Shown: positions 45,400-49,016 of the stretch, piece after piece
Layout: each line of letters opens with the position of its first letter
Numbering within the stretch: the stretch's first letter is position 1
NCBI GenBank assembly: GCA_052326445.1
Contig: JBKQNC010000014.1
Span: forward strand, 12,470-76,469
Source: Thermoplasmata archaeon
Lineage (GTDB): Archaea > Thermoplasmatota > Thermoplasmata > Lutacidiplasmatales > UBA184
DNA length: 64,000 nucleotides
Reading direction: 5' to 3'
The notes under the pieces: model-generated
Told to the model about the DNA's origin: nothing
The model's database searches: none
The model's input: the letters and a program-made list of their open reading frames with translations, nothing else
Made by a program: the position numbers and the translations under genes

Positions 45400-46150
45400 A
45401 CCGGTCCCGCGGAACGCCTGTCGGGAACCCGTTCCACCCCCTCTCCCTTTCGCCCTAAATACGGTCCGCCGCGATAGAACGAGTGCAACCACCCCAAGGA
45501 GGGGGCCCTTCACATCGCCGCAAGGGGACAGCACCGTGTCCCGGGCGTGCGAGGGTCCCCTCCACAACCCTTCTCTCCTCGCGACCGAATCGATTCGAAA
45601 CCGGAGTTTCCCCGACGGCCACGCCTCTCAGCGTTCATCGTTCACCGGCGCCGAAGACAGTCTTACGGGCGGACGCGTCCCGGACTCGAACCTCCCCATG
45701 AGTCCCGCGTCGTCCCCTGAGTCCACACTCCCCTCGAATCCCCCGATTCGACCGCGAGTCTCGACCTCTTGCGACGCGCACGGCTCCGAACCCCTGGCAC
45801 GGGCCTCCGGCACGCTCGTCCGAGCTCGTCTCGGACCGGCGTTCTCGGTCGCCAGGCCCGGCCATACCGTCTGATCGGGCACGTCGCCTCGAGCGAGTCA
45901 GGGCTCCTCGACGCCGTCCCGCGAGCGAACGCCCGGTCGGACCGACCGGTCGCACCGCCCGCGCGGAAGGGATCCGTCCCGACGGCCGTCTTCCCGGCGT
46001 TCCGCCGGACCTCCGCCTTCCTGTGCTCCGTGGCGGTCCGACCGCGGAGGTGGGCCCTCGGGAAGCGGTGACGGGACCTCCGGTCCCGCGGATTTCGACT
46101 GGAACCTTCCTCCTGCCGGCCCACCGGGGGGAGGGAGGATTTGTGGAATC

Positions 46151-46468
46151 TTGGACGCTGCGCATACGCGCTCGGAACCCGTTCTCCCGAAACCTGTTCG
46201 CCGCCGAACGACCCGACGGATCCGATACCTGGGTGAAGTGCGCCTCCCCCTGACCGGACCGTACTGCCCCCGAGCTCGACTCTTCCGGTTGCCGGACGGC
46301 CGCCTTCTCTGGCAGGTCCGCCTCTGGGAGTACGACCGAGCCGTGCCCCACCTCGTTCCCACGGACGTGCTCCGTACGTTCGCTCGCGTGAACGGTCTCG
46401 AGAACTTGGCGAACGAAGTCGAGGTACTCGTCTCCCGGGCCCTCTCGGAGACTCGTGAACGGCCCTGA
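46151..46468 (+). CDS. Small hypothetical protein immediately upstream of and overlapping the large ATPase gene
   Basis: 'RLFRLPDGRLLWQVRLWEYDRAVPHLVPTDVLRTFARVNGLENLANEVEVLVSRAL' is less Arg/Pro-biased than surrounding ORFs. Confidence 0.3.
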   Translation: MDAAHTRSEPVLPKPVRRRTTRRIRYLGEVRLPLTGPYCPRARLFRLPDGRLLWQVRLWEYDRAVPHLVPTDVLRTFARVNGLENLANEVEVLVSRALSETRERP

Positions 46469-48992
46469 CGTGGCCTCCCTCCGCCCCACCGGTACCATGG
46501 CCCAGCGCTTTCGATGGTACCGGGCCCTCGCGCTGGCCCTCACGAGCGCACGGTCGCCGGCGGGAGCGGTGTTCGAGGCCAGCACCACTTCGCCGATTCC
46601 CTCGGTCACCGTGCGACCGGGCGGACTGCTCGATTCGCTCCCCGGAACACCGAGCCCCTCGGGGCCCGTCGCTCCGGCGCCACGACCTGCGCGGCGCGGG
46701 TCGGGCCGGGTGGGCCTGCTCTGGCCGTTCCCTCAGGAGCCGAACCCGCCCCGCGAGGAGGCGGCGTTTCCCCTCGAGCTCCCCGCGCTCGACCCGTGCC
46801 TCCGGAAGGGTGGCTGGGCCGGAGTGCAGACTTTCTGGGTCCATCGGGGTGGCTCCCGGCTCGACATCGCGACCCGCTGCTGGGTGGTGGCGCCCGACCG
46901 CCGCGTACGGGACCGACTGGCCGACGCCGTCGCGGCCCACCTCAGCGCGGACTGGTACCGGGCGCTGCACCGGCGGGCGCGGGTACGATGGCACCGCCCG
47001 TGGTCCCTCCGGGAATGGCGTCGCGGGGGAGCTCGCTCGATCCCTCCGGGGGCTTGGGCGCAACCAGGACCAGCCGGCTATCGGACCGCCGAGCTGGGCC
47101 TTTGCGCGCTTCAGCTTCCCGACCGGCCCGGCGGAGCGCACTCCGTCGTATTCGGGGCTTCCGGCGCCGGGAAGACCACGTACCTCGCAGGGTTCGCGGC
47201 CCGGGCCGTCCGGGCGGGTCAGTCCGTGGTCGTCCTCGACCTGCATGGCGATCTCGCGCCGCAGGTAGTGGCGCGTCTCTCGGATTCGGACCGGGCCCGT
47301 CTGCTGACCGTGGACGCGAGCGAGCTGCCCGTACCCGGCATTTCCGGGCTCGTCGCCGGTGCGACCTCGCCGGACCGGGCGGCCGCCCACTTCGTTGCGG
47401 CGGTGAAACGCCTCAGCCCCGATGGGGTCGAACTCGCCTGGGGGTTTAGGCTCGAAAGGATCTTCGACATCTTCGCACGCCTGGTCCTCGAAACCGGGGG
47501 TTCGCTCGTCGACCTGTACGCGCTCCTCACGGACGCGGACCGACGGGACTCCGCCCGGCTCGCGACCCGGCGGGCGACCACGGCCCGGTTCCTCGACGAG
47601 CTGGGGCCGATCCTGCGACGCGACCCGGAGTTCCTCTGGTCGGCGGCGACCCGCCTCTCCAAGGTCGTCCTGGTTCCGGCCCTCATGGACCTGCTCGCGC
47701 CTTCCGACGGTGGACTCGACATCGAGGGATTGCTGGCGAGCGGCCGGACCCTCCTCCTGCGGCTCCCGATGGGTGCGCTCGGACCCGAGAGCGCCGCGTT
47801 CGCCGGAACGCTCGTCCTCGGACGCCTCTACCTAGGGTTGGCGGCGAGAGCCGACGCGCATCCGGAGGGGCCTCCCGTCCTCTTCGTCCTCGATGAGGCC
47901 CAAGCCCTCTCTCCCCGGTTGGTGGCCGAGGTGCTCGCCGAGGGCCGAAAGTTCGGGATCGAGGCGATCATCGCAACCCAGTATCCGGATCGACTCGCGC
48001 CCGAGGTCCGCAGTGCGGCGGCCGGAGCCGCCGCGTCGTTCATCGCGTTTCGTGTCCCCCCCGCCACGACGGCCAGCGTCGCGCCCTGGCTGGGGATCGA
48101 GCCCCGCGACGCGACGGGGCTCCTCTCGGGGCTGCCGACGGGGACCGGCGTCACGCTCGACGCCGACCGGGGCGGGCTCGTCTGGGTCCCGTCGACCGGG
48201 CCGGGTCCCGGGGAACCGGGAGCGGCGTGGCGGCTCGAACTGGAGAGGACCCGTCGAGAGTTCGGCACGGAATCGGAGGAACTGATGGTCAGCGATGCGC
48301 CCGGAACCGAACAGGTCCTCCTGGCGATTCTCGCGGCCGACGAATCTGGGCGCCGTCTCCGGCCCGAGGAGGTCGTGGGGGCCGCGGGCCGATTGCCGGG
48401 CGAGCCGATCGCGTCGGAACGGCTCGAGCTCGCGTGGAGGGCGATCGTCCGCGGGCCAGAGCTGGAATCCACCCCGGCCGGGCTTCGGCTGTCGGCGGCG
48501 GGGGAACGACGCCTCGGACTCGGCCGGAGCACGGGAGCGGCCCGCGAGAGCGCCGAGCATCGGCGCCTGCTCCTCGTCACCTTCCGCATCTTTGCGCGGC
48601 ACGGATACGCGCTCGAGATCCTTCGCCAGGGACGGTTCGACACGACTCTCCCCGACGCCCTCTATCGGCAACTCGGCCATGGGGGGCGGGCGGAGACTCC
48701 CGCGGAACTCGCCGACCGCCTCGACCGGACGCGGACGGGGTGGGCGTGGCGGTTCTTCCGAGGGAGGGACGTTCACGTCGAGGCCGAGGTTTCGGGGGCG
48801 CTTCGTCCGGAGCGAATCCGTCACGGCTGGTCGAAGGCGGCCGGTCGGGGAGCGTTCGCCCTGTACGTGGTGGGAGACCCGATGCGAGCGGGCCGGGTCC
48901 GACGCACGCTCCGAAATCTCCGACTCGGGCCGGACCGGGCCCAGGTATGGACGCTTCGAGATTCGACCACCTTGTCCGCCCCGAATGCGTAA
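46455..48992 (+). CDS. Large P-loop NTPase of the FtsK/HerA/TraD-VirD4 (AAA_10/DUF87-like) superfamily with unassigned N- and C-terminal domains
   Basis: Walker A 'GASGAGKTT', Walker B 'VLFVLDEAQAL', and 'IIATQYPDRL' (compare ATQRP of FtsK/HerA); 845 aa. Confidence 0.65.
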   Translation: MNGPDVASLRPTGTMAQRFRWYRALALALTSARSPAGAVFEASTTSPIPSVTVRPGGLLDSLPGTPSPSGPVAPAPRPARRGSGRVGLLWPFPQEPNPPREEAAFPLELPALDPCLRKGGWAGVQTFWVHRGGSRLDIATRCWVVAPDRRVRDRLADAVAAHLSADWYRALHRRARVRWHRPWSLREWRRGGARSIPPGAWAQPGPAGYRTAELGLCALQLPDRPGGAHSVVFGASGAGKTTYLAGFAARAVRAGQSVVVLDLHGDLAPQVVARLSDSDRARLLTVDASELPVPGISGLVAGATSPDRAAAHFVAAVKRLSPDGVELAWGFRLERIFDIFARLVLETGGSLVDLYALLTDADRRDSARLATRRATTARFLDELGPILRRDPEFLWSAATRLSKVVLVPALMDLLAPSDGGLDIEGLLASGRTLLLRLPMGALGPESAAFAGTLVLGRLYLGLAARADAHPEGPPVLFVLDEAQALSPRLVAEVLAEGRKFGIEAIIATQYPDRLAPEVRSAAAGAAASFIAFRVPPATTASVAPWLGIEPRDATGLLSGLPTGTGVTLDADRGGLVWVPSTGPGPGEPGAAWRLELERTRREFGTESEELMVSDAPGTEQVLLAILAADESGRRLRPEEVVGAAGRLPGEPIASERLELAWRAIVRGPELESTPAGLRLSAAGERRLGLGRSTGAARESAEHRRLLLVTFRIFARHGYALEILRQGRFDTTLPDALYRQLGHGGRAETPAELADRLDRTRTGWAWRFFRGRDVHVEAEVSGALRPERIRHGWSKAAGRGAFALYVVGDPMRAGRVRRTLRNLRLGPDRAQVWTLRDSTTLSAPNA

Positions 48993-49016
48993 GCAGGCCG
49001 GTGGCTTTGACGACGG

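Follow-up and report, generated by a model that had tools for sequence, protein, structure and literature searches.

Probable lineage-specific RNA elements ahead of a core chromosomal operon in uncultured Thermoplasmata

A seemingly empty stretch of about 1 kb in the genome of a high-GC Thermoplasmata archaeon holds a small RNA gene and a highly folded leader of about 0.5 kb, and it is conserved across about 100 uncultured Thermoplasmata species. That this gap encodes conserved structured RNA, and that its locus is chromosomal and not mobile, is held as a joint claim with high confidence. The best explanation as a whole is that, in this uncultured lineage, two lineage-specific RNA elements lie on the + strand ahead of a core chromosomal operon; it is judged probable, a judgement that covers the RNA elements, the operon and control in cis together. 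The observations concern conservation, non-coding evolution, strand, base pairing with covariation, gene order, folds and domain families within the window, that is, the whole 64,000-nucleotide stretch of DNA analysed, and among related loci.

Gene order and inheritance of the locus

The genes at the locus run in the order DUF4147, a hypothetical gene (- strand), HxlR, the RNAs, a small ORF, an ATPase, LigT, HhH-GPD (- strand), a gene for a 940-aa protein and SHMT (- strand). The protein-coding genes that flank or follow the RNAs are:

44887..45399, + strand: HxlR-family winged-helix regulator (Pfam HxlR, E 2.6e-21; start from the public gene call)
46151..46468, + strand: protein of 105 aa, small and basic, with TTG as start codon and an N-terminus rich in Arg (codon periodicity from ~46200-46230)
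46455..48992, + strand: soluble ATPase of 845 aa
49017..49541, + strand: RNA 2',3'-cyclic phosphodiesterase (ThpR/LigT, 2H phosphoesterase), the last operon gene (TIGR02258, Pfam LigT_PEase)

The order from DUF4147 to SHMT is kept on the chromosome in about 80 species-level genomes, and the identity of the ATPase drops from 79% to 39% in step with that of the neighbouring genes. The fixed position among housekeeping genes, with identity falling along with the neighbours, points to vertical inheritance and not to an island. The original prediction had linked the locus to a tRNA-Leu hotspot, yet the tRNA-Leu is 20 kb away with ordinary metabolic genes in between, and no integrase, relaxase, VirB4 or other type IV secretion system (T4SS) genes occur between it and the ATPase locus. 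Pilus genes were not found at the locus, GC content is about 0.69-0.72 throughout with no anomaly there, and the pattern of the small RNA has no matches among viral contigs.

A conserved gap that does not evolve as protein

The region from 45400 to 46150 had been described as a GC-rich gap with no credible coding sequence. The absence of coding is borne out by an alignment of 28 species: as far as about 46200 the substitutions follow no codon periodicity, which sets in within the small ORF, and just 77 of the 390 indels have lengths divisible by 3. The word "gap" undersells the region, given that its column identity at the nucleotide level is 84%, with indels of 1-2 nt, in genomes that share 63-79% identity in the ATPase. 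In about 70 of 80 species, nhmmer finds the region ahead of the ATPase. The suggestion that the gap could hold a non-coding RNA is supported by two structured elements with covariation. G-U and U-G pairs are frequent, which fits the + strand. In a search of 4227 Rfam families to E <= 10, the scan that had been proposed for the gap, neither element gave a match.

All of the sequence features listed in the original prediction are present:

45453-45462: TATA-like box CCCTAAATAC
45586-45597: 12-nt palindrome CGAATCGATTCG
45734-45751: inverted repeat TCGAATC-N4-GATTCGA

The palindrome is a chance match. It lies in a variable linker (45575..45625, no strand assigned) that has the lowest conservation of the region, with 66-75% gaps, and the window holds 35 palindromes of 12 nt, against 35.2 +/- 6.1 in shuffles. 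At least 13 loci of other species have insertions of 0.6-2.7 kb at the linker, which carry an S9 peptidase, a GNAT-like gene or a methyltransferase-like gene.

A small structured RNA gene

The first element, termed m5, follows the HxlR gene:

45424..45462, + strand: m5 promoter region, with a GGAACCCGTTCC/CGTTCCAC motif at 45424-45437 and the TATA-like box
45484-45573, + strand: small structured RNA gene m5, about 90-100 nt (nhmmer profile, covariation; predicted ends)

The 5' part of m5 is a conserved tail, UGCAACCACCCC, followed by an outer stem of 13-14 bp. Next come an internal loop, A(C/U)AU / UGCG(A), the helix CGCC:GGCG of 4 bp, a bulge of 5 nt, a stem of 6-7 bp and an invariant loop, GCACCG. 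The nhmmer profile of m5 matches in 71 of 84 loci, on the same strand every time. Its 19 pairs are 96.2% paired, compared to 35-58% with partners slid, and there are 155 compensatory cells versus 10-32 in the slid controls; none of 500 shuffles reaches the observed values.

Both promoter motifs are kept in about 66 distinct sequences, and the TATA box, noted in the original prediction, lies about 25 nt upstream of the start of m5 conservation. Given archaeal promoter geometry, m5 would be transcribed from its own TATA promoter. Oligo-T occurs within 40 nt after m5 in 22 of 68 loci (32%), versus 1.8% of control windows, and probably serves as the m5 terminator in many relatives. HxlR is upstream of m5 in 63 of 80 genome loci and in 54 of the 59 metagenome loci that carry m5, and the two are also adjacent in loci without the ATPase; m5 travels with HxlR, not with the ATPase. 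Because of its own TATA box, the oligo-T enrichment, the unrelated genes found between m5 and the leader and its presence without the ATPase, m5 appears to be a stand-alone gene just downstream of the HxlR gene.

A structured leader

The second element extends to the small ORF, and its parts are as follows:

~45630-46163, + strand: structured leader, about 0.5 kb in length (base pairs counted with covariation support: about 106)
45628..45870, + strand: leader 5' half (nhmmer profile, covariation)
45632-45645: tandem motif CGTTCAT-CGTTCAC
45706-45712:45772-45778, 45719-45723:45763-45767 and 45728-45730:45756-45758, with the apex at 45735-45740:45745-45750: long hairpin H2
45819-45824:45830-45835: apex of H3
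45699..45874, + strand: possible upstream ORF of 58 codons, with a conserved AUG at its start and a UGA/UAG, likewise conserved, at its end
45860..46163, + strand: leader 3' domain, a multi-helix fold of 13 helices and 79 pairs with long-range closing pairs (covariance model R1)

Leader length is near-constant across species, at 520-545 nt. The nhmmer profile of the 5' half, which also includes a variable hairpin, matches 49 loci and is contiguous with the 3' half every time. The 27 pairs of the 5' half are 76.1% paired, versus 27-38% when slid, with compensatory changes in all 27 and observed values reached in 0 of 500 shuffles. The inverted repeat TCGAATC/GATTCGA, as originally noted, is present, and forms the apical helix in one of the covarying hairpins. 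Covariance model R1 scores 233 bits (E 6e-51) at the 3' domain, with no second match within the window, and it matches once per locus in 75 loci. For the 3' domain, 86.6% of cells are paired versus 40-50% when slid, figures in which pairing is somewhat inflated, as the alignment was fitted to the covariance model; 621 cells are compensatory versus 104-192 when slid, and 0 of 500 shuffles reach the observed values.

In the last helix of the leader (helix 13, about 46106-46139), CCUUCCUCC pairs with the Shine-Dalgarno-like GGAGGGAGG (46130-46139). Ten of its 12 pairs have compensatory changes, and 89.6% are paired. The GGAGG that helix 13 sequesters lies just upstream of the small ORF, and the conserved start region comes after it. 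The candidate promoter for the leader is weak and indistinct: some 15-20 nt past the CGTTCA repeat there is a box containing TA. In a compact clade, the 3' domain and the small ORF are missing and the ATPase is kept; the leader is therefore not obligatory for the ATPase.

Proteins of the operon

The ORF of 105 aa that had been predicted to overlap the start of the ATPase is real, as indicated by its codon periodicity, its conservation in 53 of 80 loci and its 54 homologues, all hypothetical proteins of Thermoplasmata and typically of 105-108 aa. The protein has a net charge of +8 and no match in Pfam, NCBIfam or PADLOC. Its stop overlaps the ATPase start at 46455, and the two genes are probably translationally coupled. 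The start codon is uncertain: one locus (L076) has ATG at the same position, and a conserved GUG at 46143 falls in frame in certain clades, though not in the clade to which the window belongs.

The ATPase is a ring-translocase type of enzyme, in the class of type IV coupling proteins (T4CP) and HerA. Its GASGAGKTT, DEAQ and ATQYP motifs were confirmed, and its domains are:

residues 1-215: N-terminal alpha/beta domain
residues ~225-585: P-loop core of the T4CP/VirB4/HerA type with an all-alpha insertion
residues ~620-690: winged helix
residues ~700-835: PD-(D/E)xK-like domain, in which the canonical (D/E)xK lysine is not in the usual place

LigT scores 103 bits against TIGR02258 (cut-off 65.7), matches Pfam LigT_PEase with an E of 1e-23 and has two HxT motifs, at H24 and H111. 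It is directly downstream of the ATPase in 73 of 80 loci, and in some metagenome loci that lack the ATPase it directly follows the leader or m5. The original prediction of a two-gene ATPase-based system of unknown function comes close, but the operon has three genes, lies on the chromosome and also encodes an RNA 2',3'-cyclic phosphodiesterase.

The leader and the operon mRNA are predicted to be one molecule, with a putative transcription start and putative RNA ends. The leader may act in cis as a translational switch, in which the ribosome-binding site is hidden or exposed on some signal. Candidate signals would be a ligand, feedback by the Arg-rich protein, temperature or translation of the embedded upstream ORF. 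Control of translation in cis is the likeliest mechanism, and that it is the main role of the leader is given about an even chance. The operon is predicted to be a housekeeping module for nucleic-acid repair or processing, not mobile DNA or defence, a role suggested solely by domain content and neighbours. A leader of about 500 nt with about 18 helices far exceeds the needs of an on/off ribosome-binding-site switch, which hints at a further function.

Alternative explanations

The ATPase had been proposed to be the DNA-translocase core left over from an integrative/conjugative element in decay, or part of a HerA-type defence system, with a pseudogenised integrase in the gap. Its assignment to the TraD/VirD4/HerA structural class was correct, since the core fold is nearest to the coupling proteins TrwB and DotL and to VirB4, DndH and HerA. 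In addition, its sequence relatives carry TrwB_AAD_bind and TraG-D_C, PADLOC gives a mad8 match (1.6e-14) and weak HerA defence matches, the combination of ATPase and nuclease-like domain recalls HerA-nuclease defence pairs, and the annotation at NCBI reads [quoted passage not shown]. However, the ATPase misses every curated family cut-off and has no membrane anchor. Its conserved chromosomal synteny in about 80 species, the lack of the mobility genes sought, the unremarkable GC content and the absence of the small-RNA pattern from viral contigs argue against both a mobile element and a defence island. No frame in the gap evolves like protein, and its evolution is RNA-like, not that of a decayed gene. 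The mobile or defence reading is largely refuted and is considered highly improbable. It is equally improbable that the conserved blocks act as DNA, as operator arrays, a replication origin or a site for loading or recognition by a translocase. The CGTTCA tandem repeat at 45632-45645 and a GGAAC..GTTCC palindrome at 45424 are conserved, and a neighbouring gene codes for a DNA translocase that has a winged helix. Against this stand compensatory double substitutions in about 125 pairs over 600 nt, the many G-U and U-G pairs, which are meaningless in duplex DNA, and a strand polarity relative to the operon that never varies among the loci. Neither an AT-rich unwinding element nor a nearby Orc1/Cdc6 gene is present, and GC content is high throughout.

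Two further readings concern what the leader does. The upstream ORF of 55-60 codons (45699-45874) may be translated nearly leaderless, such that its translation, and not its peptide, controls the downstream ribosome-binding site by remodelling H2/H3 and the foot of the 3' domain in the manner of attenuation. It would fit into the best explanation as a candidate trigger, and is tentative and on the unlikely side. The ORF is open in 34 of 39 species, its length is a multiple of 3 (165-186 nt) wherever both anchors exist, its stop codon belongs to the strand from which the helices closing the 3' domain are built, and transcription is predicted to start about 7-10 nt before the AUG by analogy with the m5 promoter. 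However, substitutions are flat over codon positions (413/419/422), codon changes are 166 synonymous versus 667 non-synonymous, and the peptide is low-complexity and not conserved, with homologous nucleotides read in different frames between clades. Control frames are also open, in 14 and 28 of 39 species, because the strand is C-rich and A-poor; the ORF is absent in 5-6 species, and structure alone could explain the conserved AUG and stop codon. Rather unlikely is the reading of the 0.5-kb element as a functional large non-coding RNA, such as a ribonucleoprotein scaffold, substrate or ribozyme, cotranscribed with or processed from the operon and working with its proteins. The size, near-constant length and number of covarying helices speak for it. 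So do the plausible RNA-handling partners, namely the Arg-rich protein, a ring ATPase-nuclease with translocase, winged helix and nuclease-like domain, and the cyclic phosphodiesterase, which acts on RNA 2',3'-cyclic phosphate ends. Such ends are the product of cleavage by ribozymes or metal-independent RNases. The leader also persists directly before LigT in a locus where the ATPase has been lost (L101). On the other side, the element in every case directly adjoins the first ORF on its 5' side, shares its strand and finishes in a helix that sequesters the ribosome-binding site, which together are the signature of a cis-regulator. No terminator separates the two, no known ribozyme family in Rfam is matched, and the ATPase persists in some species that lack the 3' domain.

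Comparison with known systems

Like riboswitch platforms, ribosomal-protein leaders and RNA thermometers that sequester ribosome-binding sites, the leader is a structured 5' region on the mRNA strand adjoining the first ORF, and its last helix pairs the GGAGG and is maintained via compensatory changes. It differs in being several times larger than known riboswitch and leader classes, in matching no Rfam family, in preceding genes that suggest no ligand and in being archaeal; few cis-regulatory RNA classes are known in archaea. With the large bacterial non-coding RNAs OLE, GOLLD, ROOL and raiA, it shares a large multi-helix covarying structure, a conserved gene association and the lack of a known biochemical role. 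The Y RNAs, including YrlA, may offer another resemblance, as structured RNAs encoded beside RNA end-processing enzymes in Rsr-RtcB RNA-repair operons. The RNAs described here have no sequence or structure match to either group, the leader is confined to one archaeal lineage and joined to an mRNA, and the partner is a T4CP-like ATPase, not Ro/RtcB or OapA.

The ATPase differs from the type IV coupling proteins (TrwB/VirD4/TraD, DotL) and VirB4 ATPases of the FtsK-HerA superfamily in its missing transmembrane anchor, in its chromosomally fixed position in about 80 species, away from any T4SS, relaxase or plasmid context, and in its extra 215-aa N-terminal domain and C-terminal winged helix and PD-(D/E)xK-like domain. 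It misses the NCBIfam models for TraD, TraG, VirB4 and CedB/CedD by hundreds of bits. Compared to the HerA-nuclease machines (HerA-NurA for end resection in archaea; HerA-DUF4297, HerA-Sir2, DndH/DptH and TdpAB for defence), in which the nuclease is separate, the nuclease-like domain is fused to the ATPase and has its (D/E)xK lysine off the canonical place. No HAS-barrel or NurA is recognised, the score is 15-21 bits against HerA equivalog cut-offs of 800-970, and the locus is outside variable islands. The ATPase also stands together with a large structured RNA and with an enzyme that heals RNA ends, and no HerA-nuclease system is known to have these. The downstream gene is a member of the ThpR/LigT family, as it passes the curated equivalog model with both HxT motifs present. 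The protein itself is ordinary; what is new is that it is tied, in a fixed operon arrangement, to the ATPase and the small protein as well as to the structured RNAs.

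Chromosomal setting of the operon

The small ORF, the 845-aa ATPase gene and the LigT/ThpR gene form an operon that is both conserved and chromosomal. The ATPase ORF is 100% identical to a protein of a 'Thermoplasmata archaeon' metagenome-assembled genome, and it has over 340 homologues that match along their whole length, with sizes of about 850 aa and identities of 49-79%; every homologue that bears an organism name comes from uncultured Thermoplasmata. The window has a GC content of about 69% and contains one tRNA-Leu and a signal recognition particle (SRP) RNA of the archaeal type, which confirms that the window is archaeal. 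The features referred to below are as follows.

24856-24940, forward strand: tRNA-Leu(CAG)
44156-44764, reverse strand: 202-aa protein divergent from HxlR, syntenic in 62/80 loci, with no family assignment
44853-44878: promoter region of the HxlR gene (gene at 44887-45399)
45484-45573, forward strand: small RNA, directly 3' of the HxlR gene
about 45630-46163, forward strand: leader RNA, composed of a 5' half and a 3' domain
45699-45874, forward strand: 58-codon ORF inside the structured leader, with both its AUG and its stop (UGA/UAG) conserved
46151-46468: small ORF
46455-48992: ATPase gene
49017-49541: LigT/ThpR gene
50538-53360, forward strand: 940-aa protein, syntenic in 58/80 loci, with only a weak PKD match and no family assignment
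56764-57076, reverse strand: full-length archaeal SRP RNA, 138.7 bits (gathering score 96.5)

The same gene order is found on contigs with ATPases that are 79% and 63% identical: DUF4147, an opposite-strand hypothetical gene, HxlR, a gap of about 1.05 kb, the ATPase, LigT, an opposite-strand HhH-GPD gene, a protein of about 900 aa and an opposite-strand SHMT gene. A scan of species-representative genomes extended the comparison to 80 loci, with ATPase identities of 39-79%. Using the neighbors from the window as tblastn queries, LigT was found in 73 of these loci and HxlR in 63, followed by the opposite-strand hypothetical gene (62), DUF4147 (59), the 940-aa protein (58), HhH-GPD (54) and SHMT (47), with order and orientation kept.

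The original prediction had considered that the ATPase might be the remaining core of a decayed mobile element that shares a tRNA-Leu hotspot. The synteny of the ATPase across the 80 loci, a finding that the prediction itself had named as evidence against this idea, argues for a resident gene. Likewise, only ordinary metabolic genes, oxidoreductases and hydrolases, are found between the tRNA-Leu (at 24.9 kb) and the ATPase locus, with no integrase or secretion gene among them. The stretch 3' of the tRNA-Leu(CAG), 25001-27500, includes the lowest-GC kilobase of the window (0.60) and ORFs at 25916-26380 and 26368-27477, both of which lack a Pfam match. This low-GC stretch and its two ORFs could be a small integrated element; it is located 20 kb from the RNA and ATPase locus, with metabolic genes in between.

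Two structured RNAs in the gap upstream of the ATPase

Two new structured RNA elements are encoded on the forward strand of the gap (45400-46150). Between genomes with ATPases that are 63-79% identical, the gap has 84% column identity and indels of 1-2 nt. With 45440-46240 as an nhmmer query, a match upstream of the ATPase and on the same strand is found in about 70 of the 80 loci. Profiles divide the region into three modules: a 5' module (45475-45575) in 71 loci, a middle module (45620-45870) in 49 and a 3' module (45860-46150) in 49. The middle and 3' modules are contiguous in all cases and abut the small ORF, with a near-constant joint length of 520-545 nt.

Compensatory substitutions beyond those of the controls, together with a non-coding substitution pattern, identify the gap as structured non-coding RNA. 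In an alignment of 45420-46260 from 28 species, column entropy is equal over the three phases up to about 46200, and of 390 indels, just 77 have a length divisible by three and 313 do not. GC-frame plots and phase entropy confine codon periodicity to the inside of the small ORF. The possibility that the gap is a diverged or pseudogenised gene is ruled out by the flat phase entropy, by the indel lengths and by the flat substitutions of the one ORF that does persist. That ORF, at 45699-45874, is 55-60 codons long, is open in 34 of 39 species and varies in length only by multiples of three. Evidence against its translation comes from substitutions that are spread evenly over the codon positions (413/419/422), from a peptide that is unconserved, from a reading frame that varies between clades and from control frames that are open in 14/39 and 28/39 species. 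It could be a translated upstream ORF with a peptide of no importance in itself, or it could simply result from a structured strand that is rich in C.

These results bear on several points of the original prediction. All the sequence features that it listed were recovered in place, and the reported lack of a credible coding sequence holds. The suggestion that the gap might hold a non-coding RNA is borne out by the two covarying elements, whereas the alternative of a pseudogenised integrase finds no codon-like pattern of substitutions or indels. The 12-nt palindrome exists, yet the window contains 35 such palindromes against 35.2 +/- 6.1 in shuffled sequence, which is chance level, and it falls within the least conserved, mostly gapped linker at 45575-45625. 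The proposed scan of Rfam 15, including its riboswitches, ribozymes, RNase P, SRP, sRNAs and introns, gave no match in the gap at gathering thresholds. A permissive scan at E <= 10 gave only two chance-level matches of 15-16 bits, with the same outcome for a lower-GC relative. Testing every pair of columns for covariation by brute force gave too much noise at a GC content of 72%. A literature search on these RNAs, on the ATPase family and on operon contexts of ThpR in Thermoplasmata found nothing relevant.

The leader RNA

A covariance model of 45858-46165 finds one match per locus in 75 loci, upstream of the operon each time, and no second match in the 64-kb window. RNAalifold on the 75-sequence alignment folds the 3' domain into 79 pairs in 13 helices. 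In this alignment, which was fitted to the covariance model and so limits how the pairing counts are to be read, 86.6% of cells are paired as compared with 40-50% when partners are slid, and compensatory cells number 621 as compared with 104-192; none of 500 shuffles equals the observed values. The last helix of the domain pairs CCUUCCUCC (46107-46115) with GGAGGGAGG, with compensatory changes in 10 of its 12 pairs, and is predicted to hide a Shine-Dalgarno-like sequence just 5' of the small ORF. With respect to a riboswitch, the leader as folded includes a putative helix that resembles an expression platform and sequesters the ribosome-binding site; neither a ligand nor an aptamer class is apparent.

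For the 5' half, RNAalifold on a MAFFT alignment gave only 4 pairs, and the covariance model R2 was discarded. Therefore, the structure was taken from single-sequence folds and a sub-alignment, which give a long four-segment hairpin, H2, and the apex of a second hairpin. The TCGAATC/GATTCGA inverted repeat noted in the original prediction is the apex of H2. A test of 27 pairs on a plain MAFFT alignment found pairing of 76.1%, as compared with 27-38% for slid partners, and each of the 27 has compensatory changes.

The leader has at its 5' edge a tandem CGTTCAT-CGTTCAC (45632-45645) that resembles CGTTCCAC (45430-45437), which is found about 26 nt upstream of the TATA box of the small RNA. A weak TA-containing box follows the tandem repeat on its 3' side at a similar distance, and the repeat and box may be a second promoter or a site for a shared factor.

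L101 (731-1877), one of the homologous loci from other genomes and metagenomes, is a natural deletion variant in which the leader is directly 5' of the LigT gene, and the small ORF and ATPase are absent. In a compact clade (L021, L023, L028, L031, L037, L050, L054 and L055; about 5200-6000), the small RNA is found about 500-700 nt upstream of the ATPase. This clade keeps the ATPase and is missing the leader 3' domain and a recognisable small ORF; all that is visible, in L031, is a remnant frame resembling 'WEHDRA'.

The small RNA

The small RNA has a layout common to 66 distinct sequences, in which CGTTYCAC is followed after about 17 nt by TCAAATA (for which the window has CCCTAAATAC) and after another 22 nt or so by UGCAACCACCCC, a long hairpin and a tail rich in pyrimidines or in T. 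Over 54 sequences, its 19 pairs are 96.2% paired versus 35-58% with partners slid, with 155 compensatory cells versus 10-32; these values were matched by 0/500 shuffles, and U-G pairs are more numerous than non-pairs. A run of at least four T within 40 nt 3' of the RNA is found at 22 of 68 loci, compared with 1.8% of control windows; the copy in the window has only CTTCTCTCCT. Standard archaeal spacing from TATA box to start would place the 5' end at about 45484-45486.

A pattern search of metagenome contigs gave 80 loci, and 59 of these fit the profile of the RNA; the same search of viral contigs gave zero matches. HxlR is immediately upstream in 54 of the 59. In three further natural deletion variants, L131 (2317-3700), L136 (12165-13222) and L153 (1700-2009), the small RNA is followed directly by LigT/ThpR, and the leader, small ORF and ATPase are absent. 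Given that the RNA is so often next to HxlR and persists without the ATPase, its association is with HxlR and not with the ATPase. It may act independently, possibly in connection with HxlR, as a regulator or as the partner of a protein.

In at least 13 species, 0.6-2.7 kb of unrelated genes separate the small RNA from the leader. These intervening genes, and the small RNA that occurs without a leader, rule out that the two are parts of one RNA. When the small RNA was compared by eye with the leader, its invariant tail and loop had no invariant complement there. In different lineages (L045 2744-5029, L035 4160-5089 and L011 3114-5472), the insertion of unrelated genes falls precisely in the variable linker that separates the two RNAs. 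The inserts are a gene resembling S9 prolyl oligopeptidases, a GNAT-like gene, and genes of zinc-ribbon and methyltransferase-like type, and the linker seems to have received insertions repeatedly.

The HxlR promoter, the small ORF and LigT/ThpR

Across species, the promoter region of the HxlR gene (44853-44878) is almost invariant at the nucleotide level, ACTTACTTTCATACAGTAACTATAA, with a GTTAC...GTAAC inverted repeat upstream, and is probably an autoregulatory operator with a TATA box. Since this deeply conserved promoter carries a different motif and lacks CGTTCA, a single CGTTCA-like operator common to the HxlR, small RNA and leader promoters was rejected.

The small ORF is a real gene. 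It starts at 46151, with TTG in the window and ATG at this site in L076, encodes 105-108 aa and has a stop that overlaps the start of the ATPase. Its protein has an Arg-rich N-terminus, a net charge of +8 and 54 homologues, all hypothetical, with no match in Pfam, PADLOC or NCBIfam. A GUG at 46143 is conserved, in frame in some clades and out of frame in the clade of the window. In L003, another public assembly of the same organism (1.25-Mb contig), one extra base at position 7968, between window positions 46422 and 46423, frameshifts the small ORF, which explains the lack of a gene call; the base probably reflects an error of assembly.

The gene downstream of the ATPase is a bona fide RNA 2',3'-cyclic phosphodiesterase, with a TIGR02258 score of 103.3 against a cut-off of 65.7 and both HxT motifs (H24-L-T and H111-V-T).

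Possible function and significance

The leader would act as a cis-acting translational switch by sequestering the ribosome-binding site, and the operon may serve nucleic-acid repair or processing. The size of the leader leaves room for a more novel role, as a ribonucleoprotein component or as a ribozyme with cyclic-phosphate ends healed by ThpR. In its fullest form, to which we give only a small chance, the RNA of about 0.5 kb, possibly with the 95-nt RNA, would be an integral component of an archaeal ribonucleoprotein machine of a new kind. It would be bound by the Arg-rich protein and be a scaffold, guide or substrate for a ring translocase-nuclease, and ThpR would heal 2',3'-cyclic phosphate ends that result from self-cleavage or nuclease cleavage. 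If true, this would be a packaging-RNA-like or ribozyme-containing system for RNA repair or processing with no described counterpart.

To our knowledge, the number of large, conserved and structured RNAs described in Archaea is very small once rRNA, RNase P and SRP RNA are set aside. An RNA of about 500 nt and about 18 helices and a separate 95-nt RNA, both absent from Rfam, show compensatory evolution over about 100 species-level lineages, and the host organisms are abundant in peat and soil samples. Direct tests of function are feasible, since the RNAs are tied to a compact gene set: HxlR, the Arg-rich protein, the RNA 2',3'-cyclic phosphodiesterase and a T4CP-like ATPase that is fused to a domain of nuclease-like fold. 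In high-GC genomes, a gap with only Arg- and Pro-rich ORFs can be the most conserved element of its locus.

The ATPase compared with known motor proteins

Pfam, PADLOC and NCBIfam recognise the ATPase in its P-loop region only. The N-terminal domain (residues 1-215, window 46455-47100) is conserved, has no Pfam match and is a soluble alpha/beta domain in the AF2 model, with a pLDDT of about 80-90. The C-terminal domain has a restriction-endonuclease-like alpha/beta fold of the PD-(D/E)xK superfamily; sequence-profile searches against PDB and Pfam gave nothing significant for it, and only the fold search was informative. Invariant acidic residues of this nuclease-like domain are D729, D734, D772, E776 and E778, alongside K794, with a strand motif D-V-H-V-E-A-E-V-S and no lysine at the position canonical for the catalytic D...(D/E)xK signature. 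Among 1.84 billion representatives, the full-length architecture accounts for just 107 clusters (at 50% identity); a further 2500 or so clusters match the core alone and carry TrwB_AAD_bind, TraG-D_C or DUF87. The fold classes of the operon proteins are established.

The ATPase lacks both the FtsK_SpoIIIE Pfam domain and the gamma (KOPS-binding) domain of FtsK/SpoIIIE. It differs from the HerA double-strand-break repair helicase in failing the equivalog models and in having no recognised HAS-barrel N-domain or NurA, Mre11 or Rad50 neighbors. A defense system, for which the original prediction had proposed a PADLOC comparison, is not favored either: mad8 matches at 1.6e-14 over the core only (225-520) and not over the full length, the small ORF, HxlR and two further downstream ORFs (a set that excluded LigT) gave no partner match, and the locus is not variable.

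The ATPase shares one fold with the type IV coupling proteins VirD4, TraD and TrwB, that of a RecA-like nucleotide-binding domain with an all-alpha insertion. Nevertheless, the whole-protein models miss it (TraD 20.6 against a cut-off of 366, TraG 15.3 against 443), T4SS-DNA_transf and TraG-D_C matches are absent, and the only coupling-protein model passed is TrwB_AAD_bind, at 31.3 bits against 20.5 and over residues 220-270 only. Unlike the coupling proteins, it has no N-terminal transmembrane anchor; the Kyte-Doolittle maximum in a 19-residue window is 0.98 in residues 1-220 and 1.39 overall, with no transmembrane segment. It is also not beside relaxase or type IV secretion genes, and its neighbors in 80 species are housekeeping genes. 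The public name 'type IV secretory system conjugative DNA transfer family protein' is therefore misleading and is corrected here: this archaeal lineage has recruited a motor of the coupling-protein type to a role that is chromosomal and apparently one of housekeeping.
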